From: Chiloscyllium plagiosum
Taxonomy: Eukaryota
DNA: 64,000 nt
Reading direction: 5' to 3'
NCBI RefSeq assembly: GCF_004010195.1
Contig: NC_057718.1
Coordinates: forward strand, 92,552,540-92,616,539
The notes below the pieces were generated by a model that had not been told where the DNA came from, searched no databases, and saw nothing but the letters and a program-made list of their open reading frames with translations. The stretch's first letter is position 1. Each line of letters starts with the position of its first letter. Shown piece after piece: positions 6,881 to 56,612 of this stretch. Position numbers and translations under genes: made by a program.

Positions 6881-7290
6881 GAGAGGTGGGGAAGAAGATT
6901 GCAGGTTAGGAAGGCGGTGCTGAGTTCGATGGATTTGACTGAGACAAGGTATTTCCCCTCCCCCCACCTTGTCTCAGTCAAATCCATCGAATTCAGCACC
7001 GCCTTCCTAACCTGCAATCTTCTTCCCGACCTCTCCGCCCCCACTCCCGTCTGACCTATCACCCTCACCTTGACCTCTTTCCACCTATCACATTTCCGAC
7101 GCCCCTCCCCCAAGTCCCTCCTCCCTATCTTTTATCTTAGCCTGCTGGACAAACTTTCCTCATTCCTGAAGAAGGGCTTATGCCTGAAACGTCGATTCTC
7201 CTGTTCCCTGGATGCTGCCTGACCTGCTGCGCTTTTCCAGCAACACATTTCCAGCTCTGATCTCCAGCATCTGCAGACCTCACTTTCTCC
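6881..7290 (+). mobile_element. Penelope-like element 3' end (pLTR) with 70-bp inverted 5' duplication
   Basis: Arms 6881-6950 and 6966-7035 are reverse complements; ends in the repeat seen at 8981, 30809, 43433 and 54949. Confidence 0.85.
7166..7193 (+). ncRNA. Minimal hammerhead ribozyme core in Penelope pLTR
   Basis: CTGAAGA-A-GGGC-TTAT-GCCT-GAAAC-GTC. Confidence 0.7.
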
Positions 7291-8980
7291 TCAAGTATTC
7301 ATGACCTTTCCATTGTTTATAACAATTGAATCCTCACTATCTTTGCAAGGCTGGTATAATCACAGTTGAGCTTACCGGTTATCTGTGTTCATCAATTTGC
7401 AAACAAATTCCACAGGTTTCATTGGTACACAGCACCATGGAGCTGCTATCTTCATTCACTGAAGCATGTAAGAACATAGTCACTTATTGTGAATTTCTTC
7501 AGTGCATTTGGGAGAGGGAGGAGAATGAAGGTATACCCCTTCTACTCATTTTAAGAAATTTCCATACACATACAAATGGATACACAAAGAGATGAGACAA
7601 GACAGAAATATTTCAGGTGGGGAGGAACAAAATAAAGCCAGTGAAGCACAGTTCTGGCACCAGTCCTGATTATCGGCATATATGAGATATTTACCTTCAG
7701 TTCTTGGTTCTTTGAGGAGAACATGAGGTTGTGGACTGACCTATTCTCACCCCGGCAGTCACCTGTTGAGGATTCACCCTTTCACTGTCTCTGAAGGTAG
7801 TTTCTCTTTTACTTTCAAGAAGGGAATTTGCATACAAAGAGAGTAACTAATTGCTTTTACTTCTCCAGCCGGGAGACAGTGAGAAGGAGAGAGGTGTTTT
7901 TTCCTTCACAGACTGGACATTTCTGCTGTAGGCATTTGCCCAAGAACCAATCAAGAAATTGTTACCAGGCTGAGTACTATTGAACATGCACAACTGGTGA
8001 GCAAACCTAGCCTGGTCTCTCACCTATGCAGCCGAGGTGTCTCGGATGCTGTCCCACTGCTTGAATAAGGCAACACTGTAGGTACACAAGTTCTGGTAAC
8101 TCTTCTTTTTTTCAGATAAAGAAGTATCTTCTTCCACAGTCATTTGGTTTAAAGCAGTAATGTTCTCCAGTTTTTAGTCCATACTCCAAAAAATAAAAGT
8201 TGTCTTTACAGAATTAAGTTGCCCTCCTGGGAGGCCTCTATGCATGATGTATCATGGTCTATGATGAAGCATCATTTCTGTTTTGATATGTTGCTTAACA
8301 ACCACATCACTGAGAAATTGTTCTGGTTCTGATACCCCCACATAGCACAGATACACCCGTCTGGAACAGATCATTCAACAACTGCTTCTGTGGTTCCTGA
8401 CACAGCCCTACATAGATAACACAGCTGGAGGATCAATGACAAGGGTATCTGCAAGCCCAGGAACAGCAACGACTTCCAACCTCCTGAGGGAGAAGAAGTA
8501 GGAGAGGATCCCTTCTGGATGAGGAGGAGGATGAGGAGAGCCAGAATCTATTGTTCATGCTGTAGTTTCCTCAGACATCCAAAGTTCAGTGCTTCAGTAT
8601 GCTTCATTACTACACTTTTAGCATCATTGCCCACATGAGCAATGCTTAACGAGGCAGACTTTGGGAGTAAATAGAGCACTGGATATCACCCAGCCTTGAA
8701 TGAGTGGGCACTCTCTTGTAAAGTGCTTGATAGAATGAGCCTTTTCGTACAGAGATGCATACATTCATGAATGATCACATAGTGACACACACATAAGTTG
8801 GCATTGTGTGGAACGTGAGTAGAGGCCAGGCCCTGCATTCACACTACAACACCTCAGCAGCATTCATGAATGTAAAGACTGAAGGATTCCTGACATCTAT
8901 TGCCAACTTGGATACTTGTCAGAAATGAGTTTCAAACAGTACTTGGAATATATGAAGAGGTTGCTTAACTCTGACATGGT

Positions 8981-9108
8981 GGAGAAAGTGAGGACTGCAG
9001 ATGCTGGAGATCAGAGCTGAAAAATGTGTTGCTGAAAAAGCACAGCAGGAGAGGCAGCATCCAAGGAGCAGGAGAATCGACGTTTCGGGCATAAGCCCTT
9101 CTTCAGGA
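8981..9108 (-). mobile_element. Solo Penelope pLTR terminus with intact hammerhead core (9079-9106, minus)
   Basis: Flanked by 14-bp duplication AACTCTGACATGGT (8967-8980, 9109-9122); minus strand reads CTGAAGAAGGGCTTATGCCCGAAACGTC. Confidence 0.85.
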
Positions 9109-9609
9109 AACTCTGACATGGTAGCCACTTAAACAGGTCCCACAGCTACGTTCACAGAAGATCAAGCATGAAGATGGAAATGCATATATAAACAGATCTG
9201 AAAGTCTCTTTGCAATGATGTCTGTCCTGTGTTACCTATGTCTCCTCAGTGAGGGGGTTTTCATCCGTAACCTCCCACGATATCTAAGTACAGTCCAGGG
9301 ATCCACATTCTGGGTTGGAAAGAACCTCTTTTCTGGATGACATTTTGGTAAATGTCCCTGAGGATATTTATGGCTACAGCATCCATATATGCTGAGAGTG
9401 TACTGCCCAGATGCAGGCTCATCTCTGTTCAGTTGCAACTTTCACAGAGTCTCGGATCACAGGCCGCTGGAAAAATCACCTAATTGAATAAAAAAAACTG
9501 AACTTTCCCAGTCATGACTTAGTCTCAATGCATCAACAGATCTATACAGAGTACAGAAAAGCCAATGCAGTAACAAATAGTTGAAGGGAGTTTCTGGAAA
9601 TGGAGAAAG

Positions 9610-10620: not shown

Positions 10621-10850
10621 TTTCTTAAATGCGGCCTCCTACCTAATTACCTCTTTAGAAGATTATATTCATACAGTTGAAAGTGCAGTCCTCATCTCAT
10701 TAGTGACAAAATAGTATCACGGAGGTGCTCCCTCCCACATATCTGCCTGCATTTCTATTTAAACATAAAAGGAGGTATAAATCCCAGCAGCTCTCATACC
10801 ACAAGCTCACCAACGTTTCATTACAATCAAGAGACTGTACACACATGATA

Positions 10851-11020
10851 GGCAGCATCCAAGAAGCAGTAAAGTTGACATTTCGGGCAAAAATCCTGAT
10901 GAAGGGCTTTTGCCCAAAACATTAATTTTCCTGCTCCTCCACAGCCTGGCCTGCTGTGCTTTTCCAGCACCACTCTCATCTCGGCTCTAATCTCCAGCAT
11001 CTGCAGTACCCACCTCTGCC
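10851..11020. mobile_element. Fold-back Penelope pLTR mini-insertion with mutated hammerhead core (10896-10920)
   Basis: Inverted pLTR halves; CTGATGA-AGGGC-TTTT-GCCC-AAAAC; degenerate flanking duplication. Confidence 0.7.
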
Positions 11021-12890
11021 CTATACACACGATAACTGTTCACGAAACTTATGCATGGGCCAAGGTCACAGCCATAAAAGATGGGCTTTTGAACTGAGCC
11101 CCTTTTGAATTCATCTCAATTATTTAGCCCAACCAGATTTATTGGCACCAACCAGTGTGGTTTCCTCTCTTGTGGAGGCTTGTTGGCCCAGTCAGGTTTC
11201 CTCCCTAACACTAACTGTTTTACAACAAGCCATTGCCTTTGACTGACACTTCTCAAAGGCTAATAAACCTGCAAATATTCACCCCTAATATTAACTATTT
11301 ATGGAAAGAAGAACCTTGGTGTGAATGAGTTAACTAACATTGGAGCTTGAAAGGAATTTACCTCACTAGATACATGCTTCATATATAAATATAGGCTTGT
11401 GAACACACATTTCCCAATTTTTGCCTCACAAGATTTTCACTTTTAAAGCAGCAAAAGAGAATCTTCCATTTACGCAGCTGGTTGACAAACTGGCTGTATC
11501 ACAAGTTGTTTCTGATCTGAACAATTAAAAGACCAGAACCATGAAAGAGAATGCAGATCTGAAATCAGAACCTGAATCTGATGGTTCAAAGGTTGTATTT
11601 AAAAGTCGACATCCTGTTGGCAATGCCGTTTCTAGGGTAGAACAAAGGTTCATTCTGAAATTGGATGAGCAAAATAAAGAGGAATGAGGATAGAAAATTC
11701 TGTTTCAATTTAGTGATTGCACCGAATGGAATTTGAAAGTCACGGGGATTGTCTGCAAGCCATAGAGTTATAATTCACAGAAACGGAATTTTCAGTCCAA
11801 CTCATCAATGCCAACCAGATATCCTAAACTGATCACATCCCATTTGCCAGCATTTGGCTCATATCCCTCGAAACCAAATTACTGTGGGTTTCTTGACAAA
11901 TTTTCTCAGATTGATTTGACATGGAGATCTAATGCAGGTGTGGAAACAGTGGTATTTCTTGACAGCAGCAAGGAAATTTACTCTGATGCATAACTGGTGG
12001 GTTTTGAGAGTTTAAAATTTCTAAGAATGCCATATTATCGACATCCTGAAGGACTACCATTGGCCAGAAACTGAACAGGACAAACTATACAAATACTGAG
12101 GTTACAACAGCAGGCCAGCGGTTAGGAATCCTGCCACAAGTAACTCACCTTCTGGCTCTCTAGTACCCCATTAAGATCGCACATTTTAGACAGAAATGAT
12201 GTGAAATTTCCTTCTTTCAGAGGTTTGTGAATCTGTGCAATACTTTACCACAGAGGACTGTAGAAGCTGGATCATTAAGTATATTCGAGACTGAGAGTAA
12301 CAGATTTTTAATCAATAAGGGAATCAAGGGTAATGGGGAAAAGTTAGCAAAGTGGAGTTGAGGATTATCAGATCAGCTGTGATCTCATTGAGACTGTTCT
12401 GCCATGCAATGGGCTGAATGGTGTACTTCTGCTTCTACATGGTCTTATCCCTGGTTGCCCTTCAGAAGATTGTGCTGATCCACCTACAAAGAAACCGTTG
12501 TAATTCTTGGGATATAGGTAGACCCATGGATTACACCTCTTCCCACCCTACATCTTGCAAAAATGCCATCCCGTATTCCCAATTCCTCCACCTCCGCCGT
12601 ATCTGCTCCCAGGAGGACCAGTTCCACCATAGAACACACCAGATGGCCTCCTTCTTTAGAGACCGCAATTTCCCTTCCCACGTGGTTAAAGATGCCCTCC
12701 AACGGATCTCATCCACATCCCGCACCCCCGCCCTCAGACCCAACCCCTCCAGCCGCAACAAGGACAGAACGCCCCTGGGGCTCACCTTCCACCCTACCAA
12801 CCTTCGCATAAACCAAATCATCCGCCGACATTTCCGCCACATCCAAAAAGACCCCACCACCAGGGATATATTTCCCTCCCCACACCTTTC

Positions 12891-13179
12891 NNNNNNNNNN
12901 NNNNNNNNNNNNNNNNNNNNNNNNNNNNNNNNNNNNNNNNNNNNNNNNNNNNNNNNNNNNNNNNNNNNNNNNNNNNNNNNNNNNNNNNNNNNNNNNNNNN
13001 NNNNNNNNNNNNNNNNNNNNNNNNNNNNNNNNNNNNNNNNNNNNNNNNNNNNNNNNNNNNNNNNNNNNNNNNNNNNNNNNNNNNNNNNNNNNNNNNNNNN
13101 NNNNNNNNNNNNNNNNNNNNNNNNNNNNNNNNNNNNNNNNNNNNNNNNNNNNNNNNNNNNNNNNNNNNNNNNNNNNNNN
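12891..13179. other. Assembly gap (289 N)
   Basis: Run of N inside the Penelope element. Confidence 1.
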
Positions 13180-13349
13180 CTTGTCGGACCTGCCCAGCTC
13201 CTTTTCCACCTATCCACTCCACCCTCTCCTCCCTGACCTATCACCTTCATCTCCTTCCCCACTGACCTATTGTACTCTATGCTACTCTATCCCTACCCCC
13301 ACCCTCCTCTAGCTTATCTCTCCACGCTTCAGGCTCTCTGCCTTTATTC

Positions 13350-13377
13350 CTGATGAAGGGCTTTTGCCCGAAACGTC
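13350..13377 (+). ncRNA. Minimal hammerhead ribozyme core, intact
   Basis: CTGATGA-A-GGGC-TTTT-GCCC-GAAAC-GTC. Confidence 0.75.
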
Positions 13378-13635
13378 GATTTTGCCTGTCCTCGGATGCT
13401 GCCTGAATTGCTGTGCTCTTCCAGCACCACTGATCCAGAATCTGGTTTCCAGCATCTGCAGTCATTGTTTTTACCTCGTTTTTACACCATTGTTTTGTAT
13501 GGGAGGAAATTCAAGAATTTTGACTAAGCAACAATGAAGGAATGGTGATATATTTCCAATTCAGGATGGTGTCTGACCTGGAATGGAACTTGCAGGTGGT
13601 CATGTTGCCACGCATCGGCAACCCTTGTTCTTGAT

Positions 13636-14428
13636 GTTTTTGAGCAAAGTACAGTGTAACTCTGCAAGTATAAATTCATCCCATAAACATATATATATAT
13701 GTGTGTGCCTGTTGGGTCTTTGTGTCTGTGTGTCTGCACACACATAAACACTCTCTCTCGCAGTCACTCACAATCCCCCACCCCAGACACACACACACTC
13801 CCACATGCACTCCCTCACAGACGTAAGACACTCTACACTCACATACACACACATATACACTCTCTTTCACACTCACAACTTCCCAACCCAGACAGACAGA
13901 CACACAAACACACACAAAGACCCACATGCACACATATACATATATGTTTGTGGGGTGAATTTGTACTTGTGGAGTTACATTGTACTTTGTTCAAAAACTG
14001 CATGAATTCATGTAAAACTCTGTTATCTCACTTTTTAGATTAGAATCAATCTAAACATCATGGCACAGACAGAGAACACAGGGGGCTAACACCTTCAACA
14101 TATTGTCGAGCTAACACCAATTGTTACAGTTAACTTTTAAATAAAAGTTTTGTGATTTACACATGAAAGAAGTGAAACTATCATGGTATTCCAATAAATG
14201 AAAGACTCAACAAACAATCAAGGTATTTTTCAATGAATAATTTCAGTTACATCACACTGTAAACGTTTGCTATAAATTCTGTGCCTCACATTGTGTCCTC
14301 CACAATCACCTGATGAAGGTGCGGCACTCGGAAAGCAAGTTTGCTTCCAATTAAACCTGTTGGACTATAACCTGGTGTTGTGTGATTTTAACTTTGTACA
14401 CCCCAGTCCAACACCGGCATCTCCAAAT
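13636..14428 (+). mobile_element. Second Penelope family 3' end with CA-rich UTR, inverted 5' piece and degenerate hammerhead (14307-14342)
   Basis: About 13636-13740 is the reverse complement of about 13890-14000; CAC-CTGATGA...GAAAGC; flanking duplication CTTGTTCTYGAT (13624-13635, 14429-14440). Confidence 0.75.
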
Positions 14429-14879: not shown

Positions 14880-15720
14880 TATCATGTATTGGTGCAGCCC
14901 AGCTAGCGAAGAAAATTGCAAACGAGAAGCGAAACGATTGTTTCCACGAATCGCCTGCGCGACTAACTCCCTTTACCCGACAATTTTTCACGCCTCAAGC
15001 AACCTGACAAACCTGAAAACAAGGGAAAGACCCGCGGATGTAAAAAGCACAGAGATTGCTGGAGAAACCCAGCAGGTCTGGCAGCCTCTGCGGAGAGAGA
15101 AAGCAGAGTTCACAAGTCAATTCCGGCGACCGTTCTTCCGACCTCGAAGGGGCCCTTCCAGAGTAGGAGCGGGGAGGTGAAGCATGCGGAAGGCGGACTT
15201 CCGGTTGAAAGTGACCTCTGACTCCAAGTGACGCGGCCAGAAAGTGGTGTATGCGAGTGACCAGCGGCGGAAGTCGTGTTGGGGAGGGGCTGGGTCCTCG
15301 CCGTCCCATTGGTTGGAGGGGGCGCGAGACGAGCAGGGGGGCCGCGGCGCGTGCGCGCTGCCCGGGTTTGGCTCAGCAGCGCGAGGCGGCTCGGTCACCC
15401 TCCCCCACCGCTGACGCTGTCGGAGCCGAGACTGAGACGGAGGGAAAACGCTCGGTGGGGAAGCAACAGCTGCGGCGCTCACCCAGGCAACTAACCGACC
15501 CAGGCCACAAGGATGGGTGTCCCGGCCTTCTTCCGCTGGCTGAGCCGCAAGTATCCGTCCATCGTGGTGAACTGCGTGGAGGAGAAGGTGCGTGTTGGTC
15601 GAGGCTGCGTGCCGGGCCTAGTGTGTCCGTATGCATTTGGGAAACTAGGCCTGAAGCCAACCCGCTCTCTCCCCGCAAATCCTCCCTTCCTGACCACCGC
15701 CGTTGCCCCCTGATTCCCAC
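14880..15720 (+). promoter_or_regulatory. XRN2: CpG-island, TATA-less housekeeping promoter / 5' region of XRN2
   Basis: Sharp local rise in CpG and GC around the start codon in an otherwise CpG-poor window. ETS motifs ACTTCCGG (15197-15204) and GCGGAAGT (15267-15274), inverted CCAAT ATTGG (15308-15312), NRF1-like GCGCGTGCGC (15347-15356), and a strong Kozak context (A at -3, G at +4). Confidence 0.85.
15513..15587 (+). CDS. XRN2: XRN2 coding exon 1 (MGVPAFFRWLSRKYPSIVVNCVEEK)
   Basis: Diagnostic XRN N-terminus MGVPAFFRWL; donor AAG|GTGCGT; 75 nt, phase 0. Confidence 0.97.
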
Positions 15721-18712: not shown

Positions 18713-18830
18713 GTAAAAACAAGGACTGCAGATGCTGGAAACCCTGATGAAGGGCTTTTGCCCAAAACATCAATTTTCCTGCGCCTCGGATGCTGCCTGA
18801 CCTCCTGTGCTTTTCCAGCACCACTCTAAT
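18713..18830. mobile_element. Penelope pLTR mini-insertion (inverted terminus plus mutated hammerhead at 18744-18771)
   Basis: Duplication CTACWATGCCACCAAG (18697-18712, 18831-18846). Confidence 0.8.
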
Positions 18831-20649: not shown

Positions 20650-21650
20650 GCAACATCCTTATAAATCTCTTCTGAATCTTCTGAAGTTTCACAAAATCCT
20701 TCCAATAGGAGGGACACCAGATTTACACACAATATTCCAAAAGTGGCCTAACCAACGTCTTGTATAACCACAACATGACCTCCCAACTCCTATATTCAAT
20801 GCTCTGCCCAATAAAAGAAAGCATACCGAATGCTGCCTTCACTATCCTAACTGCCTACGACTTCACTTTAAAGGAGTTATGAACCTGCACTCCAAAGTCT
20901 CTTTGTTCAGCGACACTCCCCAGGGTCTTACCATTAAGTGTATAAATCTTGCTATGATTTGCCTTTCCAACATACAACATCTCGCATTTATCTAAATTAA
21001 ACTCCATATGCCACTCCTTGGTTCATTGGCCTATCCGATCAAGATGCCATTGTACTCTGAGGTAACTGTCCACTACACCTCCAATTTTGGTGTCATTTGC
21101 AAACTTACTAACTATACCTCTTATGTTCCAATCCAAATCATTTATATAAATGATGACAAAAGTGGACCCAGCACCGATCTTTGTGGCACATCACTGGTCT
21201 CAAGCCTCCAGTCTAAAAGGCAACTGAGAACCACCACCACCCTCTGTTTTCTACCTTTGAGCCAGTTCTGTATTCAAATGGCTAGTTCTTCCTGTATTCC
21301 ATGAGATCTAACCTTGCTAACCAGTCAACCATGAGGACTTGATGAATGCCTTACTGAAGTTCATATAGATCACGTTCATCACTCTGCCCTCATTAATCCT
21401 CTTCATTACTACTTCAAAATCTGAATGAAGTTAGTGAGGCATAATTTCCCGTGCACAAAGCTCTCCCTATTCAGTTCTTGTCTTTCCAAATATATGTAAA
21501 TCCTGTCCCTCAGGATTCCCTCCAACAACTTGACCACCACCGATGTCAGACTATACAGATGCGTAATTCCTTACCGCTTATCTTAAATAGTGGGACCACG
21601 TTAGCCAACTTTGTCTTCTGGCAGCTCACCTGTAACTACCAATGTTATAA
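20650..21650 (-). mobile_element. CR1 LINE fragment
   Basis: Same family as 3112-4430; RT motifs on the minus strand. Confidence 0.88.
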
Positions 21651-24997: not shown

Positions 24998-25292
24998 TCG
25001 GTGGCTCAGTGGTTGGCACTGCTGCCTCACAGTGCCAGAGACCCGGGTTCAATTACCGGCTCAGACGACTGTCTGTGTGGAGTTTGCACATTCTCTCCGT
25101 GTCTGCGTGGGTTTCCTCCCACAGTCCAAAGATGTGCAGGTTAGGTGAATTGGCCATGCTAAATTGCCCGTAGTGTTAGGTGAAGGGGTAAATGTAGATG
25201 AATGGGTCTGGGTGGGTTGCGCTTCGGCGGGCAGGTGTGGACTTGTTGGGCCGAAGGGCCTGTTTACACACTGTAAGTAATCTAATCTAAAA
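24998..25292 (+). mobile_element. HE1/V-SINE-type SINE
   Basis: A-box TGGCTCAGTGG, B-box GGTTCAATTACC; homologous to 5994-6324; (AATCT)n tail; ends about 70 bp before exon 2. Confidence 0.88.
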
Positions 25293-25365: not shown

Positions 25366-25493
25366 GCTAAAGAAGTCGATGGAGTTAAAGCCCCTGTGGA
25401 CAGCAGCAAGCCTAATCCAAATGAAGTGGAGTTTGATAATCTGTACTTGGACATGAATGGCATTATTCATCCATGCACGCATCCAGAAAACAA
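25366..25493 (+). CDS. XRN2: XRN2 exon 2 ([42 protein letters not shown])
   Basis: Catalytic [13 protein letters not shown] motif; TGCAG| acceptor, |GTAATA donor; 128 nt. Confidence 0.97.
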
Positions 25494-25577
25494 GTAATAT
25501 TTCTCTTTTTAGAATAACTCTTTGTTCTTTTGTCAATTCAGGAAAAGTTCTGATTCAATTTTGAATGAATTTTGCAG

Positions 25578-25689
25578 GCCAGCTCCCAAGAATGAGGATG
25601 AAATGATGGTGGCCATATTCGAATATATTGATCGATTGTTTAATATAGTTAGACCCAGGCGTCTACTTTATATGGCAATAGATGGAGTG
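25578..25689 (+). CDS. XRN2: XRN2 exon 3 ([37 protein letters not shown])
   Basis: YMAIDGV motif; CAG| and |GTAAGT; 112 nt; frame continuous. Confidence 0.97.
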
Positions 25690-25829
25690 GTAAGTACCTA
25701 TTTATAGACATTAAAGTTAGTCAGATGAATCTTGAGCGTTTTTAAACAGGATAATTGGATATAGTAACCTATATATAATACGTGTACCATTGAGTTAATT
25801 TGGTGCATTTGTTTTGTTGCCCAAGAATA

Positions 25830-26590
25830 CAGTCATAGGGAAGTACAGCATGGAAACAGACCCTTCGGTCCAGCCCGTCCATGCCGACCCGATATCCTAA
25901 CCCAATCAAGTCCCACCTGCCAGCACCTGGCCCATATCCCTCCAAACCCTTCCTATTCATATACCCATCCAAATGCCTCTTAAATGCTGCAATTGTACCA
26001 GCCTCCACCACTTCCTCTGGCAGCTCATTTTATACCTGTACCACCCTCTGTATGAAAACCTTGCCCCTTAGATCGCTTTTATATGACCTCCCAACTGTAC
26101 TCAATACTCTGACCAATAAAGGAAAGCATACCAAATGCCGCCTTCACTATCCTATTTATCTGTGGTTCTATTTTCAAGGAACTATGAACCTGCACTCCAA
26201 GGTCTCTTTGTTCAGCAACACTCCCTAGGACCTTACCATTAAGTGTATTAGTCCTGCTAAGATTTGCTTTCCCAAAATGCAGCACCTCGCATTTATCTGA
26301 ATTAAACTCCATCTGCCACCTCTCAGCCCATTGGCCCATCTGGTCAAGATCCTGTTGTAATCTGAGGTAACCCTCTTCGCTGTCCACTACACCTCCAATT
26401 TTGATGTCATCTGCAAACGTACTAACTGTACCTCTTATGCTCGCATCCAAATCATTTATATAAATGACAAAAAGTAGAGGACCCAGCACCGATCCTTGAG
26501 GCACTCCACTGGTCACAGGCCTCCAGTCTGAAAAACAACTCTCCTACCACCACCTTCTATCTGTGAGCCAGTTCTGTATCCAATTTATCC
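25830..26590 (-). mobile_element. CR1 LINE fragment with internal deletion
   Basis: ORF 26079..26516 TSGVPQGSVLGPLLFVIYINDLD..FADD. Confidence 0.92.
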
Positions 26591-27158: not shown

Positions 27159-27866
27159 TATTGTAGATTTGTAACGTCTGCCAAGATACAAATCAGTGCT
27201 CCTTTGTACAAAGATGACCGCAGAGTTTTGCTCAGAATAGCTTAGCAGCACCAAGTAAGAGTGCAAAGCATGAAAACATAACTTGTAGTGGTCTGTATAT
27301 TGCCATGGAAATGTGCAAATTGCAAAAAAAAATTGGCAAATATAAAGTGATCATAATATTCTCTCAAGTTTTAAGAAATATTGTGGCTTTTTGAAATTTC
27401 ATTTACTAGTTAGTTCATATTTTAATGTCTCATTCATGTTCAGTCATTTAAAAATAAATCTGCCAATGTTACAAATATGATACCAAAGCACAGATACTAA
27501 CCTGCCACATAATCTGTAATTGTCATTTTCACCTAACTTTGCACATGTATTGGTGGTAGAGATTTGTATACATTGCACACTGATGTTTTTCTGACCGGTT
27601 CTTCAATGATTTTGGCATAGAAACAGCAATTTAACTGTTTGGATCCATTTCGGAACTGTATTACTTTGTAAGCTGTTGGCTGTCAAAATTCAATTTATAA
27701 TATGTCAAAGATTTTATTATGAAATAATTTTCATAATAGCCAAAAATACATGCCAGTAGTTAGAAGTAAAGATAAAACATGAGTATGTAAATATTATCCA
27801 ACATATGGCCACATAATGAGAAAGAGAAGTCAAGTATATAAGCAACAAATGTATTGGATATTCTAG

Positions 27867-35503: not shown

Positions 35504-35597
35504 GTATGTGTGCTATATTTGATTGGAAGATGGATTGGGGTGCTGAGGGGTCAGTTGACAGTAATCTTTTTTTTAAATGTTCATTTTTACTTTGCAG

Positions 35598-35792: not shown

Positions 35793-35950
35793 CTGATCTT
35801 ATTATGTTGGGATTGGCAACTCATGAACCAAACTTCACTATAATCAGGGAAGAGTTCAAGCCCAACCAGCCTAGGCCATGTGCTCTTTGTAATCAAGTTG
35901 GCCATGAAATCAAAGAATGCCAGGGTTTGCCAAAGGAAAAGCAAGGAGAG
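35793..35950 (+). CDS. XRN2: XRN2 exon 9 (ADLIMLGLATHEPNFTIIREEF...CALCNQVGHEIKEC...), includes CCHC zinc knuckle
   Basis: DADLIMLGLATHE motif; the CX2CX4HX4C knuckle is characteristic of XRN2 rather than XRN1; ACAG| and |GTACGG; 158 nt. Confidence 0.97.
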
Positions 35951-37233
35951 GTACGGTAATAAAAGCTGTAAAATGTTGCTGTTAACTACTTTCAGCAATA
36001 TTAATATCACTTCTGAAAATAAAATGAGATTTCTTCTTTTCTGGTCAAATGGGGAGGCATTTGACTTGTATTACTTGGCAATATGAGGGTGAAAACACCT
36101 GACTCTTTATCCTGTAGATATTGAAGCATTGCTTGAGAAACCAAACCATTTAAACAGTGCTTTAATTCATAGTGCAAATCGATTAGCAGGAGTGTCAGCC
36201 ATAGATTTCCAACATTTAACTTGACGCTCATTTTTATGGCACTTCATGCTCAGCTCACGGATGTGGACATCAAATAAAAGTTTATCTTTAACTTGCAAGA
36301 GCAAAAATATGTGTTTTGTTTACTCTGCATGGTTTAACTCCTTAACTTTCCTACACCTCTTCCCAAAAAGCCCACTTTACAACAGAGAAACACTTGACGA
36401 GCAAAGGTTTTTCAGCTTCGAGTTATTAAACCTGAATCCCTGCAGCCTATTGGTCAGCAGCAACCCATATTTTGAAGCACATCACTTCAACCTTCTTCAT
36501 TGCAACATTGCCAGGTTTAAACACTCAAATTGCTAATGCTTTCTCACCATCATTTTACACTCCTCACATTTTTGTTTATTCTTCTCCTGCAGCAAATGCT
36601 GACTCAACACTGATTTTTTTGTAAATTGAATGCTAGTAAAATTTGCTTTGAGCACACTGCACATCACTATTATTTATTCCCTTAAGAATGGTTCATTACT
36701 GTCTTTTAAGAGTGGCATTTAAGGAAAAGTAATGCTAGATTCAGATTTTACATTTGCTTCTACTGTGCTAATGGGAATGCGACAGCTCTGTTATAGCCTG
36801 CAAGGCTAAGCTTTTTGTGCCACATAATGCAGCTTTCCAAATAGGTTCATACTGTTACAGTAACATTGCCCTATTACCATTACTCCAAAAATAGCGATTC
36901 TTTGGCAGATTGCTTACCTTGTTTACTTTGTGTGTCATTCAGTGCAAAGATGCAAAGCAACCAAATAGCTATTTGGTAATTCTGAACTGGAGGATTACTG
37001 AAAAAAAGTGCATTTTGTCAAAGCTTTTTGACTTGCACGCATCTACAATTTGCAAGAATACCAAATCAAACAAAACCACTGTTTATGCTAGTCAGAGAGA
37101 TATGAGCTAATTCATGGGCAAGTGAACTCTGCCATGGCAACACTACTAATTATGTTAAACATTCCATCCATTTATTACTGTAATTTCATGTTGTATAAAC
37201 TTTGTTTTCCCCTTGAGTTGGTCATCGTGCAAA

Positions 37234-37269
37234 TTGTCCTGATGAATCCGTTATGAAAACCTTTGACAA
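37234..37269 (+). ncRNA. Degenerate hammerhead-like motif (another Penelope-type remnant)
   Basis: TTGTC-CTGATGA-ATCCGTTAT-GAAA-ACCT-TT-GACAA: 5-bp helix I closes the core, stem II is weak. Confidence 0.45.
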
Positions 37270-38016: not shown

Positions 38017-38150
38017 TACTTGGAAAGAGAATTAACTATGGCAAGCCTCCCCTTCAAGTTCGATTTTGAGAGGAGCGTTGATGACTGGGTTTTTATGTGT
38101 TTTTTTGTGGGAAATGATTTCCTCCCTCATCTACCATCGCTGGAAATTAG
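38017..38150 (+). CDS. XRN2: XRN2 exon 11 ([45 protein letters not shown])
   Basis: [17 protein letters not shown] motif; CCAG| and |GTATGC; 134 nt. Confidence 0.97.
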
Positions 38151-38784
38151 GTATGCTAATTAACTTTATTATTTCAATGTTGTTTGACATTTTTCTGTAC
38201 ACTTTGGAATACTTGAAGATATATTGTTTAGATCATCAATACCTTTCTGAAAATCTCAGCTTTTCACTTCTTCAGTGTTGAGTTTCATTGTTTATTTTTT
38301 TAAGAAAATAAATATGGCTACCTTGATTTTTCCAGTTTAAAATGCTTTTGTTCAGTAAATTCTAACAACTTCTAGAAAGTTAACCTAAAAGAGTTGCAGA
38401 GCAGATTGGTGAAGCTGAATTTATTTGATACTTTCATGAAAAGCAGTTGAAATTTACAAGAGTTCTTGTTATTCTAAGGTGAAAACAAGGTCAATGTTGG
38501 CTTATTTCCTGCCAGCTATAGAGGGGGATTCTTTGTGCTGGAAACTAGACAGTTTCAAACAACAGAGACTCAGGCTTGCAGTGCAATGATGCTACCTTCT
38601 GATAACTGGGTTTTAATTGACTTCAGTGCATTCTCACAATTATGCTTTAAGTTAATTGTTCTGCATTTTCAAGATTCTAAGCTGCAAACCTTGTTCAGAA
38701 ATGTTAATAAATAATGCTTGCACACTTGCAAAATAGCATATTACTGGACTTAAAGTGCATTTATCTGAATACGACATATAGATT

Positions 38785-38930
38785 ATGTCAGTTCTGAGGA
38801 AGGTTCACCAGACTTGAAACGTTAACTTTGATTTCTCCTCTCAGATGCTGCCAGACCTGCTGAGCTTTGCAAGCAACTTCTGTTTTTGTTTGTGATTTAC
38901 AGCATCTGCAGTTCTTTTGGTTTTTACCAT
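38785..38930 (+). mobile_element. Penelope pLTR terminus (third family) with hammerhead 38790-38827
   Basis: AGTT-CTGAGGA-AGGTTC-ACCA-GACTT-GAAAC-GTT-AACT (helix I AGTT/AACT); downstream GATGCTGCCAGACCTGCTGAG and CAGCATCTGCAG shared with the other pLTRs. Confidence 0.75.
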
Positions 38931-39782
38931 TTATAAGTTTTGTTCAGACTTGAGACATGGAGAAAAAATTTCAGTCCCTGATATTTGTGAACTATGTGAA
39001 TGGTAGAAGCTCTGAAGCCCAGGGATTTGAGTGGGTTTCATTATTGGTTCATTGGGCGGCTGATCCCATTAAAAATAAGAAGCAGTATTAATAGGTAGGA
39101 GGCTGAAGGTGCTTTTGCTTCTCCTGGCCCAAAAGAATTGCTCTAAAACACAGTAATTTTTTTAAGTCTGTCAGCTCTCCCTTGCATTTTGTTTTTGGTT
39201 TTCGAGAGCTTGTTGGTAAACTTGTAAGGCTCTTAGTAATGTCATGAACTAAATAACAGAATTCTTTCTGTTCATGACATGTAATCCTCCCCCCTCATGA
39301 TGTAGCGATGTAAAAGGATTGCAGCAGCATACCTACTGAGTTTGGAATATGTTCACTGAATATTTTTAACTCTGCCCCAGTCAGTTATTAAAGACTGGGA
39401 ATTGTACAGGGCAGTGCAGAACTTAGCACAAAAGAGAGTTTTTTTCAATAAGCATGAAGTAATGAGAGTAAATTTAAGGTGTTTCAAATTTACCTTTGTG
39501 AAAGTCGTTGCTTGTGAATATTGGATAAATCATGGTAAGTTTTTTTTGTTAAAAAATAGTTATGCAATTAAACTTGAGTGGGATGAACATTTGTTATACT
39601 GTATTTCCACGCACTGTGTGCAGTTCAGTGTTTTGTGGGCTGCATTGTTTTATAAAATGTGTGACTTGTGTATTGCAACCACTCATAATATACAGTAGTT
39701 CCATATGAACAGAACTGATGACAAAAAGTTTGACCGTGTCATTTCATTCTTGAAGCTGACTTGTGTGCTGTGTTTTTCTCAG

Positions 39783-39840
39783 GGAGGGTGCAATTGATCG
39801 ACTGGTTGGCATTTACAAGAACGTAGTACACAAGACAGGG
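39783..39840 (+). CDS. XRN2: XRN2 exon 12 (EGAIDRLVGIYKNVVHKTG)
   Basis: TCAG| and |GTAAGT; 58 nt; frame continuous. Confidence 0.95.
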
Positions 39841-39924
39841 GTAAGTGATGTGAATCGCCTTGCCAACCTGTGTATTTAACTCCAAAAAAAATCTAATAAA
39901 CGACAATGCTTTTGTTTTCTTTAG

Positions 39925-40032
39925 GGTTATCTTACGGAGAATGGTTTTGTCAACTTAGAACGAGTGCAGATGATTATGGCTGCAGTTGGAGAAGCTGAAG
40001 ATAACATCTTTAAGAAGAGAAGAGATGATGAT
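39925..40032 (+). CDS. XRN2: XRN2 exon 13 (GYLTENGFVNLERVQMIMAAVGEAEDNIFKKRRDDD)
   Basis: GYLTE..VNLERVQ motif; TTAG| and |GTAAGC; 108 nt. Confidence 0.96.
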
Positions 40033-40673: not shown

Positions 40674-43432
40674 GTAAGTCATTCCCTAATTCTGTTATAG
40701 AGATTAATCTTAACAGTTGTAGGAATTTCCAATATTTTATTCATTTTAATGTGAGAACAAACTTTCATTCAAATCTATATAACTGCGGGTGAATTACTTT
40801 TTTTTTGCTTATCTGAGCAAACATCCATCAACTTGTTTGACTTCTGTGCCATTCAATTGAATTGATAGAATTTCTTTCAGCAGATGTTTCATTTCAGATG
40901 AGGGAAACAGAGTGACACTTAATGTTGCCCTACCTGCACTTGCTAATGTCAAGCCATTGTCCATTTCTGCCTTTTTGTAAGTTTGATCCAGACGAATCTA
41001 ATTTTTTATTGAATGTCTGTGTTTCAATTGGTCTGGAAAAGAAAATGCACAGATTAGAAGGTATAGATCCACATATGTAATATGGATTTGTTATTTGCTC
41101 TGTTTCTGCTTTTACTTTTGATGCTTGATTTGTTTCAGTTTTCTTAAAGATAATGTACAGTTCAAGAGAAATGTTGGGACTTGTATAAAAATGGAAGTGT
41201 AATGATTTCTGAGGTGGAATTTGGAAGTGAAGCTGCAGTTGACTGGCTTAGAGGCCCCAAGTTTCTATTGTTTCATAAATTGAAAGTATTTCATAAATAC
41301 TTTCCCATTTAAAAAAAATAAGCTAAGCATCAATTAACCTCAGAAATGGCCTCCTCCCCCAGTATTATTATTCATTTTAATCTCAAAATCATGGGAAAAC
41401 AACAATTGGCTCATTCACTGGAGCTGGCCCTTCCAGGTAGGCTGAGGATCGCTAACCAAACTTTATAATGTGCTTGTTTCAAACTGAAATTTTTTTGTAT
41501 CATGATAATATGAAAGGCAAAGTTAACGTATTAGAAAATATCAGAACATTTGCTTTGTAAAAAGCTAAATTGAGTTTGCATAAATAGACTTTTAAAATTT
41601 GTATTAAGTTTTACTGAAGTAATGTATATAGATTTGCTGTGTTAATCTATAATGTGTAGAAACTTCCCATAAATGTTCATTTCATTTTATTTGGGTTACA
41701 GTTGAAATGGAGGCTCTGGGACAAAATTTGCCTCCTAAAGATTTATTATTCTGTGTTGGTTTGGTCTGTCTACTACAAACAATAAGTGGGTGTAGACCAT
41801 GCCATCCCTCTCGAGCCTTGTGCCCCACTCAACTCGATTGTAACTGATTGTCTTCATTGTCACTTTTCGATACGCTTCCCATATCCTTTAATTCCCTTTA
41901 AAGACCAATTAAATTTTAAGTTTCAGTTTGCTGAACAGTAGAGAATTCAATCATGTGGGTGCCCAACTAAAGATTCTTGACTTCTGTGTGGAATAGTTTA
42001 TTTCAGTCTAAATCCTAAAATGATTGTCTCGTTAATCCAAGATTTTGCTGCCATGGTTTACCTTTCCAAGCCAACAGAAATAATGTCTCAGTGCATATCA
42101 ATCCTCTTTGGAACCATAAATGGTTCACTGAGTTAACCCCCATTATACTAACATTTATTACCTTGTGGCTCATGCATTTAACCTGTTTATATTGCCTTTG
42201 TCGGCTCTATCATTCTCATTGTTTGCATTCCAATCTAGGTTTGTGTTGTCAGAAAATCCACATAGATTATACTCGTTGTCTTTTCAAATTGCTGTTGCCC
42301 CAGCATTAATCCTTTTAGAATCTACTGTTTTGTCACCAGGTTGAAAATGCACTATTCGTCCTTGCTCTTAACTCCCTTTCTGTTAACTCTTCTCCCTTTC
42401 ATGCTAATTATTATCTCCACTCAGGAGCTATTATCCTGGTTACTCATGTTTTGTGTGACACCTTTTGAAATACCTACCTTTTGGAAGTCTTTGTTTACTA
42501 AGTTTACTGACTCCCCTTTATTCCTCTTTTTATTGGTTAAAGACTATTTTTCTTTTTGATTATACTATTTCTTTTAGTGTATTATTAAGGATTCCTTAAT
42601 AATATCCTCCTGATGGTTCAAGTCATGCTAAATGTCCAGGAGTTCCTGTTTTCCCAGTTCTCTGACTGCACCCTTCCCCTCATCCCATCCCACCACCACC
42701 ACTAAATGATGATATTATATAGGCTAATTTACAGTCTGTTGAGGCCACTATAAAATCCAGGCAGTCATGGAAAATCTTTTTCATGCATCTACTATCTACT
42801 TTAGACTCATAGTATGTGTGGCATTAAATCATGTAGAGTTGTTTGTTTTTAACTGCTGAAATCTTTCAAAACTTTTCTCATGCTTATTACTCTCTCAATT
42901 CTCATATCTGCCTGATATGCAGTTTGTATACTCAGCTGTGAAAACAATCAGCAGATTTGTTCAACTCCTCACCCATTTTCATGATTCCTGTGATAATCTC
43001 TCCCACCTCTGCCCCTAAAAGACCAATGTTTCTTTCCTTTCTCACATACATTGTGCTAAAAAATACATTTTGGAAGTTGCCTTTTAAAATAGGGGTAGAT
43101 GGATGCGGTTCATTTGTGTGAAGGTTTTTTTTAAACTGGTAAGAAAGTATTTTGGATCAGTAATCTACATGTATCAATAGAAAGTATGTCACTGCATTCA
43201 ACTGGCTGGGCAAAGCTTTTTGCTGTTTACAGATGGAATGTTTTTATTACAGCATCTACAACAGACCAGAATGCTATTAGTTTAGCTTTGTCTTCAGAAC
43301 AGAACTTTCAGGATCTCTGTTCATTTCAAAAAGGAGAAAGATTTCTTTGAGCAAGAGAATCAAATGTTAGTTTAGAAGAACGATTTGCCTGAGCTAAACT
43401 GTTGTGAGTTTGTGCAACTTCCAAGTTGGGAG

Positions 43433-43651
43433 CTGGAAATGTGTTGCTGGAAAAGCGCAGCTGGTCAGGCAGCGTCCAAGGAGCAGGAGAATCGATGTTT
43501 CGGGCATGAGCCCTTCTTCAGGAATTCCTGAAGAAAGGCTCATGCCCAAAACGTCGATTCTCCTGCTCCTTGGATGCTGCCTGACCTGCTGTGCTTTTCC
43601 AGCAACACATTTTCAGCTCTGATCTCCAACATCTGCAGTCCTCACTTTCTC
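43433..43651. mobile_element. Fold-back Penelope pLTR mini-insertion with two back-to-back hammerhead cores
   Basis: 95-bp arms 43430-43524 / 43525-43619 centred on GGAATTCC; 15-bp duplication CTTCCAAGTTGGGAG (43418-43432, 43652-43666). Confidence 0.9.
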
Positions 43652-43999: not shown

Positions 44000-44232
44000 A
44001 CCGTTTGTCGTGGTTGTCGTTATGCTTGCCGAGCTGGAAAGTTGATTTACAGACGTTTCGTCCCCTGTCGAGGTGGACTGTGTCTGTATTGTACAGCAGC
44101 GCTTCACAGAAGGCTCCAAAGCACTGAAGATGTCACCTAGGCAGGGACGAAACATCTCCAAATCAACTTCTCAGCTCAGTGAACATACCCACAACTGGCA
44201 CCCAAGCTACAAATCTTTACACAACCTTGAAC
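44000..44232 (+). mobile_element. Poseidon-type Penelope pLTR with inverted 5' piece; hammerhead 44121-44156
   Basis: Homologous to 47150-47275; GCA-CTGAAGA-T-GTCACCT-AGGC-AGGGAC-GAAAC-ATC; partial inverted copy at 44049-44078. Confidence 0.8.
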
Positions 44233-45849: not shown

Positions 45850-46530
45850 TGAGGAAGACTGTTTTCATTGGTTGCGAGCCAACAGTGGCGATTAAGACCT
45901 ATCTGATTGGTCGGTTCTGCTATACTGGTTACTGTTGAAGGTGTTGCCACTCCTGGGGGCAATTAGATCTATTCTTATCCTTTTCTCATTGATACTGTCT
46001 TTTTGCTCCGTCTCAAAAATGTCAATGACACTCCTGATATAGAGTCTTTTGGAATCATGTTCTGTAGCATGCTATTCCCATTAGTAATGGTTGATTTAGC
46101 ACACTTCTTCAGGGGGTCCTTAAAACGTTTGCACGGAGTCCCACTGTTCCATTTGCCAATGTTCAGCACTTTGTACAACCCAAACGTGGGCAGTATATTT
46201 GACCCACCCAGTGCAGAAGGATGTCTTTGATACTGGTGTTAGCTATTTCTAAGACTTCAATGTTTGTGAATCAGTCCTACCAGTAGATCCTGAGGATGTA
46301 GCAGAGGCATCGGTGATGGAAGCACTCTAGATGGCGTAGATGATGCCACAGAACCAATGACTCTGCAATATATAGCATGATGATGAGGGCTGTGACTTTG
46401 TAAAGAGTTTGTTCTGTATGCTGGAACTGCACGTATTTATCAAGTCTTTTGGCTGCATTATTTGCTTTTGAAGGTTGATTGTCTGCTTTCTTGATGATGG
46501 CATTAAACAAGGTAATTCATCAAAGTTGAA
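45850..46530 (-). mobile_element. RTE LINE 3' fragment
   Basis: YKV....MLY.AES..L.HHLRHLECFHHRCL..ILRIYW and GK..GTP.KRFKD.LK motifs. Confidence 0.65.
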
Positions 46531-46569
46531 TTTTACATCTGTTGCAGTTCTGGTGTACTGCAGTATGTA

Positions 46570-47275
46570 CCGCGCAATTTTATCAACAGAAACTTAAGGG
46601 AAAGACAACGGAATGAGGACATGCCGCAACCCAAAGGACTAGTCACACTACCATACATCAAGAGCATTTCCAAACTGACGGCCCGACTACTGCGACCACT
46701 AGGACTCATAACAGCACACAAACCAACAGCCACTCTCAGACAACTCATCAGAACGAAGGACCCGATACCCAGCATGAGCAAAAGCAATGTAGTGTACAAA
46801 ATCCCATGCAAGGACTGCACAAAACACTACATAGGACAAATAGGAAGACAGCTAATGATCCGTATCCATGAACACCAACTAGCCACGAAACGACACAACC
46901 AGCTATCCTTAGTAACCACACTCTCAGATGACAAGCAACATGAGTTCGACTGGGACAACACTACTATTATAGGACAAGCCAAACAGAGAACAGCCAGGGA
47001 ATTCCTAGAGGCATGGCATTCATCCACAGATTCAATCAATAAGCACATCGACCTGGACCCAATATACCGGCCACTGCAGCGGACAGCTGGAACTGACAAC
47101 CGGAAGCGGCAGATACAAATCACTATAAATGCTGGAGGAAACATCACAGAAGCGCTTCACAGGAGGCTCCCAAGCACTGAGGATGTCACCTAGACAGGGG
47201 ACGAAACATCTGCAACACAAATTCCCAGCTCGGCGAACAGAACCACAACAACGAGCACCCGAGCTACAAACCTTG
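46570..47275 (+). mobile_element. Penelope (Poseidon-type) 3' fragment encoding GIY-YIG endonuclease, plus pLTR
   Basis: ORF 46621..47193: TLPYI, NVVYKIPCKDC..HYIGQ.GR.L..RIHEH, FDWDN, R.FLEAWH. Confidence 0.92.
47174..47213 (+). ncRNA. Hammerhead ribozyme core in Poseidon-type pLTR
   Basis: GCA-CTGAGGA-T-GTCACCT-AGAC-AGGGGAC-GAAAC-ATC-TGC (helix I GCA/TGC). Confidence 0.72.
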
Positions 47276-54078: not shown

Positions 54079-54326
54079 TTGTCTCAGGATGCACTTGCAA
54101 ATAAGATGAGTGAAAGCAAGATCAAAGTGTCTTGGTTTCAATGACTAGATTATGAGGGAGTGCAGCTTGGACCTGCTTTTAATATATGCTGGGGATAAAC
54201 TGCATATGAAGAGTAAGGGAAACTGAAACGCAATTGCATTTCTTTCGGCATTTTAACTCTGGTTGTTTCCCAGCAAGTAGGATGTGCTTTATTGCATTTT
54301 TTAAAAACCTTGTTTTTATATTACAG

Positions 54327-54462
54327 GCTTTGGGAAGAAGGCTGGAAACAGCGTTACTATAAGAACAAGTTTGATGTTGATGCTTCTGATGATAAATTCC
54401 GCAGAAAGGTTGTGGAATCATATGTTGAAGGTCTGTGCTGGGTTCTTCAATATTATTACCAG
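54327..54462 (+). CDS. XRN2: XRN2 exon 17 ([45 protein letters not shown])
   Basis: Conserved region 2 start; ACAG| and |GTATGT; 136 nt. Confidence 0.97.
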
Positions 54463-54759
54463 GTATGTGACCTTTTTGTTCATGATCTATTTTTATCAGA
54501 ATTCAATTGCAGCACATGATAAATTCCAACTTGAGTGTTCTTGTGGACATCAAAGGGGAGGGAATACATTTGGGGAATTGAGCATTTCCCTTTTCTCCCC
54601 TAAAATAACTCATTAGAAATGGCATTTTTACAATATCAGGTTGGGCAGTGTATTTCTATTACATTCCGCTGATGGTCCACATAGGCAGGCAGGATTAAGA
54701 AAAACCCCAAAGTGTTCTACATTTGTGTGAGGCACAACAGGATGGCCTGAGTGAGGGTA

Positions 54760-56612
54760 GGGCCAATCTATGATAGTGGAGGGAACTTGTGCCTGGAATC
54801 GGAGGAGGTAGGGGACATCTTTAATGAATACTTTGCTTCAGTATTCACTCGTAAGAGGGAACTTGTTTGTGAGGACAGGTTGATGTTAAGAAGGAGGATG
54901 TGCTGGAAATATTGAAAGACATAAGTCCCCTGAGCCAGATGGGATATAGAGGAGAAAGTGAGGTCTGCAGATGCTGGAGATCAGAGCTGAAAATGTGTTG
55001 CTGGAAAAGTGCAGCAGATCAGGCAGCATCCAGGGAACAGGAGAATCGACGTTTCGGGCATGATTCCTGAAGAAGGGCTTATGCCCGAAACGTCGATTCT
55101 CCTGTTCCCTGGATGCTGCCTGACGTGCTGCGCTTTTCCAGCAACACATTTTCAGCCCAGATGGGATATACTTAAGGTTATTACGGGAAGCAAGGGAAGA
55201 GATTGCTGTGCCTTCGGCGATGATCTTTGCAGCCTCACTGTCCACTGAAGTAGCAGCAAATGATTGAAGAGTGGCAAATGTTATTCCTTTGTTCAAGAAG
55301 GGGAATAGGGACTATAGACCAGTCTATAGACTGGTCTATAGTCCAGTCAGTCTTAAATTGATAGTGGGCAAATTATTGGACAGGATTCTGAGAGACAGGA
55401 TTTGTGATTAGAGAGTCAGCATGGCTTTGTGAGGGGCAGGTCCTGCCTCACAAGCCTTATTGAATTCTTTTGAGGATGTGATAAAACACATTGTTCAAGG
55501 TAGAGCAGTGGATCTGGTTTATATGGATTTTAGCAAGGCATTTGGTAAGATTACCCATGGTAGACTCATTCAGAAAGTAAGGAGGCATGGATATAGAATT
55601 GGCTAGCCCATAGAAGACAGAGGGTGGTGATAGATGGAAAGTATTCAGCCTGAAGCTCAGTGACCAGTGGTGTTCCGCAGGGATCTATTCTGAGACCTCT
55701 GCTATGTGATGTTTATAAATGACTTCGGTGGGGAATTGGAGGGGTGGGTTAGTAAGTTTGCCGATGACACGAAGGTTGGGGGAGTTGTGGATAGTGTGGA
55801 AGGTTGTTGTCGATTGCAACGGGATATTCACAGGAGGCAGAGCTGGGCTAAAAAGTGTCATACAGTGTTCAACCAGGTAAAGTGTGAAGTGATTCATTTT
55901 GGAAGGTCGAATTTGAATGCAGATTATAGGGTTAAAGGCAGGATTCTTGGCAGTGTGGAAGAACATGGGGATCTTGGGGTCTCTGTCCATAAATCCCTCA
56001 GAGTTGTCACCAAGTAGATAATGTTGTTCAGAAGGCATATGGTGTGTTGGCTTTCATTAGCAGGGGGATTGAGTTTAAGAACCGTGAAATTATGTTGTAG
56101 CTCCATAAATTCCTGGTTAGACTGGTCACCTCATTATAAGAATGAAGAAGAAGCTTTAGGGAGGGTGCAGAGGAGTTTTGCCAGGTGATGCCTGGACTGG
56201 AGGGCATGTCTTATGAAGGAAGGTTGAGAGAGTTTGGGCTTTTCTTATTAGAGTGAAGAATAATGAGAAGTGAATTAATAGAGTGTACAAGATGATAGGC
56301 GTGGATAGCCAGAGATATTTTCCCAGGGCAGAAATGGTTATCATGAGGGAGCATAATTTTAAGGTGATAGGAGGAAGGTTTACAGGAGCTGACAGGTAGG
56401 TTCTTTACACAGAGTGATGGGTGTGTGGAACGTATTGCCAGCGGTGGTAGTGGAGTCAAATACATTAAGAACATTTAAGTGACTCTTGGATAGGCACATG
56501 GATGATAGTAAAATAAAGGGTATGTGGTTAGTTTGACCTTAAAGTAGGAAAAAGTTTGGCACAACATCGAGGGCCGAAGGGCTTGTACTGTGCTGTACTA
56601 TTCTATGCTCTG
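54760..56612 (+). mobile_element. CR1 LINE (RT to 3' tail), degenerate
   Basis: ANVIPLFKKG, YRPVSL, DFSKAF, SGVPQG, FIND..KFADD motifs. Confidence 0.92.
54949..55156. mobile_element. Fold-back Penelope pLTR mini-insertion with intact + strand hammerhead core (55067-55094)
   Basis: 76-bp arms 54986-55061 / 55081-55156; 14-bp duplication CCAGATGGGATATA (54935-54948, 55157-55170). Confidence 0.9.

Follow-up and report, generated by a model that had tools for sequence, protein, structure and literature searches.

Minimal hammerhead ribozymes (min-HHRs) have been described in the pseudo-long terminal repeats (pLTRs) of metazoan Penelope-like elements (PLEs) by Cervera and de la Pena in 2014 (PMC4209133), and both the motif class and its link to PLEs are already in print. 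The part of that paper used here names no cartilaginous fish as a host, and the whale shark paper names Penelope once and a ribozyme never. Here, we follow up 13 hammerhead-like sites in a 64-kb stretch of the Chiloscyllium plagiosum genome (64,000 nucleotides, called the window throughout) that carries the gene XRN2. What are these sites, and do they do anything for the gene in which they lie? We are confident that they are end pieces of PLEs, that is, pLTR fragments with the known minimal type-I hammerhead, which would cut only in the element's own RNA, and that the copies in and near XRN2 are likely to be inert passengers. The published accounts with which we compare them are drawn on in part, and each likeness or difference given below is to the part used.

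An original prediction, made from the letters of the window, had listed 13 minimal cores from roughly five Penelope families, and a hammerhead-like core is indeed present at all 13 coordinates (for the minus-strand sites the low coordinate had been given, C3 actually lying at 9106 and 43521). The five repeat families are borne out by a profile search—A at eight of the sites, B at 14310, C at 37239, D at 38794, and E at 44124 and 47177—which finds 21 fragments in the window, 8 of them beyond the listed 13 and mostly inverted partner arms. Presence holds, intactness only in part: a strict descriptor, requiring the core boxes, a stem II of at least 3 base pairs (bp), a palindromic helix III, and a helix I of at least 2 bp, is passed by only five of the 13 (7166, 9106 on the minus strand, 13350, 38794, and 55067). 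Those five matches in the window compare with a mean of 0.03 (maximum 1) across 100 dinucleotide shuffles; the CUGANGA and GAAA boxes alone are weak evidence, with 16 matches vs. 5.8 (maximum 14) in the shuffles. An invariant nucleotide has gone from four sites (G12 at 10896, 18744, and 43528; U16.1 at 14310), and at four more the core is kept and the helix-III palindrome is broken (37239, 43521 on the minus strand, 44124, and 47177). Both boxes, together with U16.1 and H17, are satisfied by all five family patterns and by 9 of the 13 window copies. An Rfam search of the window (19 matches, E up to 10) returned no hammerhead family, and its microRNA matches were set aside as spurious, lying as they do on inverted repeats, several of which are head-to-head pairs.

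The architecture is that of the min-HHRs of PLEs (PMC4209133): a type-I core without a real helix III, a palindromic 15.2-16.2, the G10.1-C11.1 pair, and an unpaired base after A9, so the claim that PLEs carry such ribozymes in their terminal repeats agrees with what has been published. G10.1-C11.1 in helix II and the unpaired base are shared by families A, B, D, and E. In family C, stem II has just 2 bp, and A9 is followed by no extra base. Around the cut, helix I measures 2 bp in A, 3 in B and in E, 4 in D, and 5 in C. Two features set our families apart from the published ones, namely, the helix I of A, with only 2 bp plus one pair, and the stem II of C, with only 2 bp. Helix III had been described as ACGT, which is true of 6 of the 13 sites and of the family palindromes of A, D, and E but not of B (AGCT) or C (AAGCTT). 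The supposed AUC cleavage triplet is the product of CpG decay of the family GUC and no separate triplet, and stem II, as predicted, varies between families and yet still pairs, the loop in A varying among subfamilies on a constant stem.

In numbers, however, the shark departs from the published hosts. A general pattern of the core matches exactly 172,512 times in the 3.56-Gb genome (its reversed control, 1,047 times), about 48 intact cores per Mb, compared with ~4,000 in coelacanth and 9,000 in Xenopus (PMC4209133), counts obtained with different descriptors. By family, the patterns match 48,069 times for A, 11,393 for B, 8,645 for E, 291 for D, and 10 (exact) for C. As in the published genomes, there are several families per genome, mainly as single dispersed copies with close opposite-strand pairs. 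A sample of 1.163 Mb of intron, taken between the CUB-domain exons of four long genes, holds 405 fragments, of which 247 span the core (1 per 4.7 kb), in line with the predicted copy about every 5 kb; since this density is similar, the window is ordinary for its genome. The A pattern occurs 14 times in the sample vs. 15.7 expected, and the sample is therefore representative for A.

The link to Penelope is shown for four families. Cores of A, B, D, and E stand immediately 3' of PLE protein remnants, and pieced together from fragments, each of the four has a reverse transcriptase (RT) followed C-terminally by a GIY-YIG endonuclease in one open reading frame (ORF) upstream of the pLTR. Of 20 family A loci with an ORF piece, among them the one in the window, 15 have a core downstream on the same strand, and relatives of the A1 ORF remnant carry the RT thumb region, a Cys linker, and GIY-YIG, the last above the cut-off in one relative. 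Among 24 loci each, ORF pieces lie upstream of B cores in 4 on the same strand and 2 inverted, and upstream of D cores in 4; in relatives of family E, an RT was matched (PF00078, E 7e-12), and it bears the motifs DKG and YVDD. A full-length family E element was sought and given up, all four of the long-frame candidates fetched being assembly gaps, with no gap-free copy among them. Family C is left unassigned, a point against a Penelope origin for all five families: it adjoins no PLE ORF in the 22 (old) loci tested, and a search for its parent element found none. Its loci (L022-L034, L233-L241) share a CCAAT-like box and TATAAA upstream, a 5-bp helix I, a 6-nucleotide (nt) palindrome, and a 2-bp stem II.

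PLEs with a Cys linker belong to Neptune/Nematis and those without one to Penelope/Poseidon (Craig et al. 2021; bioRxiv 2021.04.23.441226/PMC8557442). The linker (CX2-5CxxC, before GIY-YIG), seen also in the endonuclease-positive Neptune/Nematis PLEs of that paper, is found in relatives of A, B, and D and is absent in E, which suggests, by this one motif, that A, B, and D are Neptune/Nematis-like and E Penelope/Poseidon-like. Inverted 5' arms, common in Neptune/Nematis PLEs (PMC8557442), are common here too, with 160 of the 405 intronic hits in head-to-head pairs formed by inverted, 5'-truncated arms. Family E is best compared with the Poseidon element PAc of Anolis (Frangieh et al. 2024; PMC11167929). 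In both, the ORF starts where stem II begins, and the cut falls a short way into it (28 nt in E, 26 in PAc); the two discrete 3' ends of E, ~40 nt apart at +73 and +113, match a tail left by internal RT initiation, in keeping with the optional tail of 30-40 nt in endonuclease-positive PLEs, and as in the anole element, the main template would be uncut RNA. The PAc ribozyme cut only with protein, and its RNA ends were not seen in vivo (PMC11167929), whereas the joins of family A to U6 RNA, to which we turn below, suggest cutting.

If uncut RNA is the template, the 5' ends of the copies should be worth reading. Among 401 intronic hits outside family C, 160 could be mapped (at least 88% identity to a young subfamily over at least 60 nt). 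Ordinary copies do not pile up at the cut, an idea we rejected with 5 of 160 within 3 nt of it; instead, 57 of the 146 A, B, and D copies begin at -10..+1 relative to C3. Fresh sets of A2, B, and D, picked by core sequence alone (n = 90), repeat the pattern, with 54 copies starting at most 10 nt from the core, 10 starting 11-59 nt away, and 26 starting at least 60 nt away. Of 14 long B copies, 13 carry TATAAA (in one of them, TATAAT) at -38/-40, and long D copies carry it at -31/-33, ~30 nt before the 5'-end limit in both. Directly before the start, 8 of 13 A2/A3 and 4 of 4 B copies have a non-templated G, against 5 of 14 in A1 and 3 of 8 in D; with so few A1 and D copies showing it, a cap-derived G was dropped as weak. 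We found no description, in the part of PMC8557442 on Neptune/Nematis PLEs that we used, of 5' ends piling up beside a hammerhead or of a TATA-type promoter, and the internal promoter within the pLTR of Drosophila Penelope is TATA-less (PMC2377424).

We favor, with some confidence, the view that in A, B, and D the promoter of the pLTR sets the transcript's start 4-10 nt ahead of the core. Reverse transcription primed in the tail would then run off the uncut 5' end, giving short, promoterless copies that would often fold back into head-to-head pairs; this run-off reading takes as given the internal start of RT in the tail (PMC11167929). Tandem read-through or circular RNA would account for the longer copies that keep ORF remnants, and once a copy is inserted, deamination of CpGs at G12 and helix III would disable many cores. 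Several observations tell against a general promoter of this kind: the only such motif in A2 is TTTTAT, at -36; the A1 reference shows no TATAAA; and family E has no sharp pile-up, with 5 of 30 copies ending at -20..-31 and 15 of 30 extending at least 143 nt. A start-site pile-up in E had been hinted at by 3 of 14 copies and was dropped when 30 more did not confirm it; of the five ends at -20..-31, two are fold-backs at a palindrome, and one borders a gap.

The strongest competitor, doubtful in our eyes and still to be taken seriously, is that the 5' pile-up marks the place where the RT stalls or folds back or where an endonuclease cuts at the structured hammerhead, which would leave the identity of the PLEs unchanged. 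The head-to-head pairs speak for it, their junctions lying in or beside the core, as does the A limit, which falls on the helix I 5' strand and on ATT, the triplet that anole PAc prefers to cut (PMC11167929), and so too does the cluster of E ends on a palindrome. However, B ends reach about -8/-9, past a 3-bp helix I, and the limits in B and D track TATAAA at ~30 nt. The non-templated G in A2/A3 and B argues the same way, although weakly, given the figures for A1 and D.

A second record, of a different kind, comes from copies joined to U6. An Rfam search gave 48 scored U6 matches, and we inspected 40 loci, which hold 42 of them (the other 6, top-scoring, lie in two clusters). Four of these loci run from U6, through its T tract, straight into family-A sequence, which begins with the base just past the predicted cut; all four joins to the family-A pLTR are base-exact at the predicted scissile bond, and the four carry four different tails. 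None of the 40 loci has a join at -10..+1, where ordinary copies start. One of the chimeras (L377) continues with sequence that matches window positions 13378-13476 at 99%. Another (L387; G000:C31:9507200-9507780) is a head-to-head pair in which U6 is joined to the family-A pLTR at the predicted cut in both arms. Hammerhead cleavage leaves a 5'-hydroxyl (5'-OH) end. We think it likely, from this pattern of junctions, that the four U6 copies record cutting in living cells, and probable that a fraction of the element RNA is cut after position 17, either in dimers held by the helix-III palindrome, with the help of the PLE protein, or both. The 5'-OH end would occasionally be joined to U6 and then copied into DNA. 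Chimeras of U6 and LINE-1 (long interspersed element 1) made by RtcB (Moldovan et al. 2019; PMC6789731) likewise have a full-length U6 ending in a T tract and joined to a retroelement, but their L1 partners are variably truncated and the nuclease is unknown, whereas all four family-A joins fall on one bond.

The alternative is that nothing is cut in vivo and that the U6 joins arose when the enzyme paused at the helix I base and switched templates there. Low activity in vitro (PMC4209133) fits this alternative, as does anole RNA sequencing with no reads ending at the cut (PMC11167929). Our own data hold points of the same tenor, and these weigh against cutting. U6 is fused to another short repeat at 18 of the 40 loci, often at its start, and to the interior of a PLE ORF at 2, so U6 joins need no ribozyme; the sole family-E join (L389) is ambiguous; and RNA reads cover the cut sites with no pile-up of molecule ends, a weak test, made on many passenger copies and with a poly(A) single-cell library whose organism is not the best match. 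We set aside a peak of loose read ends at 13346, since subfamilies that differ in their upstream sequence confound it. Yet ordinary copies end at the cut in 5 of 160 cases vs. 4 of 4 U6-family-A joins that are base-exact, and RtcB ligates U6 to 5'-OH ends, the type that a hammerhead makes (PMC6789731). Template switching is, in our judgment, an unlikely account of the four joins. The partner short repeat itself, seen across U6 loci L366-L399, is abundant and fused mostly near its start; it is present also in the window near 5978-6156 and 24999-25158. At one further locus (L363), U6 is followed by what looks by eye like a transfer RNA-like sequence. In the literature searched, we found no paper on a copy number such as this one, on the start-site pile-up, or on the U6 joins, and shark examples may be present in supplements.

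Putting starts and joins together, we offer tentatively, at somewhat short of even confidence, a two-part record, in which the hammerhead occupies the first 30-40 nt of a capped transcript, the short copies are run-off complementary DNAs of uncut RNA, and the U6 chimeras are traces of cutting in the germ line.

That most A2 and D copies are only ~100-140 nt long might instead mean that they are an independent, nonautonomous family, retrozyme- or SINE-like (short interspersed element), spreading as hammerhead-plus-tail units. Animal non-LTR (long terminal repeat) retrozymes do have PLE-related type-I hammerheads, with up to 120,000 copies in axolotl (PMC7229834; bioRxiv 2026.07.22.740005), and one chondrichthyan among those sampled is reported to have retrozymes (bioRxiv 2026.07.22.740005). 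They are tandem repeats with canonical hammerheads (PMC7229834), however, whereas the copies here are stubs of pLTRs, scattered or inverted, and their cores are minimal. Tandem arrays are rare, only 19 of the 405 intronic hits having a same-family, same-strand neighbor within 500 nt with which a dimer could form, and none occurs among the 21 hits in the window; 5' ends and inverted junctions vary from copy to copy, the short copies have no TATA-like box, and the helix sizes differ from the canonical 6/4 bp. We regard an independent family as very improbable.

There remains the question of whether the dispersed copies do anything where they now lie; probably, they do not. In the sampled introns, each region being taken as the intron of one gene, the ratio of sense to antisense is 119:128 for core-spanning copies, 58:60 for core-intact copies, and 46:41 (95% interval 0.42-0.64) where core and palindrome are both intact. 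Within the core, mutation is heaviest at CpGs, in which G12 lies and, in three families (A, D, and E), the palindrome of helix III too; in A, B, D, and E, mismatch is 0.08-0.55 at CpG sites of the core and helix III vs. 0.04-0.08 at core sites outside CpGs. In 83 inverted pairs, with head-to-head arms taken as identical at insertion, the arms differ at A/T sites in 24 of 331 core positions vs. 167 of 2096 in the flanks (p 0.74). Two points stand against this. The strand test is without a positive control, pieces of the CR1-like kind being unbiased too (56:67), and measured against subfamily consensuses, the core differs less than the flank (81/1516, 5.3%, vs. 811/8096, 10.0%; p 1e-9), a comparison confounded by subfamilies, by the filter on the core, and by base composition.

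The covariation that had been taken as support for a real ribozyme origin does support it, with compensatory pairs both between and within families, but it reflects selection on master elements and not any function of dispersed copies, most of which decay no differently from their flanks. In family D, pairs 10.2-11.2 are G-C 19, A-T 23, G-T 14, and A-C 4, and helix I.2 is T-A 37 and C-G 5; in family E, 10.3-11.3 is C-G 12, T-G 9, and T-A 5. Within D, E, A, and B, the compensatory changes amount to few independent events. A sobering point is that an unrelated D column covaries with 10.2 nearly as well (p 0.0016 vs. 0.0011), so the pair counts reflect descent, a few events inherited from master elements.

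The notion of a host regulatory layer, in which dispersed cores cut XRN2 or other pre-mRNAs, has in its favor that seven of the eight listed cores in XRN2 introns are on the sense strand (two of them, 38794 and 55067, intact) and that core sites look more conserved than flanks against consensus, but with density and orientation neutral in other introns, arm pairs decaying alike in core and flank, possible dimer partners as scarce as noted above, and the 55067 core predicted to lie inside a hairpin, we consider it highly improbable, and an effect of the 13 window copies on XRN2 is unlikely.

The host gene was identified by Pfam exon matches and by a best match to 5'-3' exoribonuclease 2 structures. 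Coding exon 1 lies at 15513-15587 (plus strand), with further exons at 25402-25689, 27864-28453, 35425-35854, 38056-40029, 54325-54468, and 56989-61516. Because the coding region begins at 15513, five of the 13 copies stand upstream of it, and dispersal through the XRN2 locus holds for the other eight. Upstream of the gene, the first core (A2, 7166-7193, plus strand) is intact, with a G.U at 10.1-11.1, in a long copy with more than 200 nt of upstream pLTR; an inverted repeat with ~70-nt arms at 6880-7036, at the 5' end of this copy, fits a PLE inverted 5' arm. An intact A2 core at 9079-9106 (minus) belongs to a short copy that begins ~3 nt before C3. The A core at 10896-10923 (plus), with G12 lost and helix III broken, is accompanied by a partial inverted arm (10844-10897, minus). 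A 5'-truncated A1 ORF remnant at 12526-13236 (plus), consisting of the RT thumb region and then an assembly gap, precedes the intact A1 core at 13350-13377 (plus), with its predicted cut after 13377. Family B has its TATAAA at 14271-14276 (plus), 39 nt before C3, and a core at 14310-14338 (plus) with U16.1 lost and stem II mismatched. A decayed family D pLTR with a broken core, absent from the original list, occupies 15040-15144 (minus), inside a GC-rich stretch ~370 nt upstream of the XRN2 start codon.

Within the gene, an A core without G12 lies in an intron in sense at 18744-18771 (plus). The family C core at 37239-37264 (plus) is old, its stem II and palindrome decayed and its 5-bp helix I intact, with TATAAA at 37194-37199 and a second decayed copy at 36965-37054 (minus); the family D core at 38794-38823 (plus), in a short, intronic, sense copy, is intact, with a weakened stem II and a 4-bp helix I. 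Family E is represented by a core with decayed helices I and III at 44124-44156 (plus; inverted partial arm at 44006-44075, minus) and by the 3' end of a PLE ORF with a GIY-YIG-like endonuclease at 46516-47193 (plus; TATAAA at 47124-47129), followed by a core at 47177-47210 (plus), where the ATG starts at A9 and CpG decay has broken helix III. Three head-to-head A2 pairs are predicted to form near-perfect ~85-95-bp hairpins in XRN2 introns: one at 30808-30969, without the 5' core box and absent from the original list; one at 43420-43648, joining 43494-43521 (minus, helix III broken) to 43528-43555 (plus, G12 lost), with a predicted hairpin of ~95 bp; and one at 54956-55178, whose ~90-bp predicted hairpin buries the intact core at 55067-55094 (plus). 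Folded as monomers, most copies form stem II, and only some, such as 55067 and 47177, close helix I with an open core. The set suggested for in vitro work is partly ill-chosen: helix III is broken at 47174, stem II is weak at 38790, and 55067 would be buried. The window also holds 3' fragments of LINEs, which we take to be of the CR1 family, at 3170-4635, 20650-21153, 25821-26544, and 60033-61072 (RT match).

What might this mean? In XRN2 pre-mRNA, the head-to-head hairpins would be double-stranded RNA. For the family of elements, the ~170,000 intact cores exceed the 9,000 published for Xenopus and the up to 120,000 retrozyme copies of axolotl, searches that differ from ours, and they supply a large set of natural variants. 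The 5' pile-up predicts a transcription start in three families. If the two-part record is true, cleavage would be a switch that removes the cap and leader (in family E, the start codon too) and leaves a 5'-OH that can be ligated. As indirect evidence of in vivo cutting by PLE minimal hammerheads, the base-exact U6 joins name the bond to assay.

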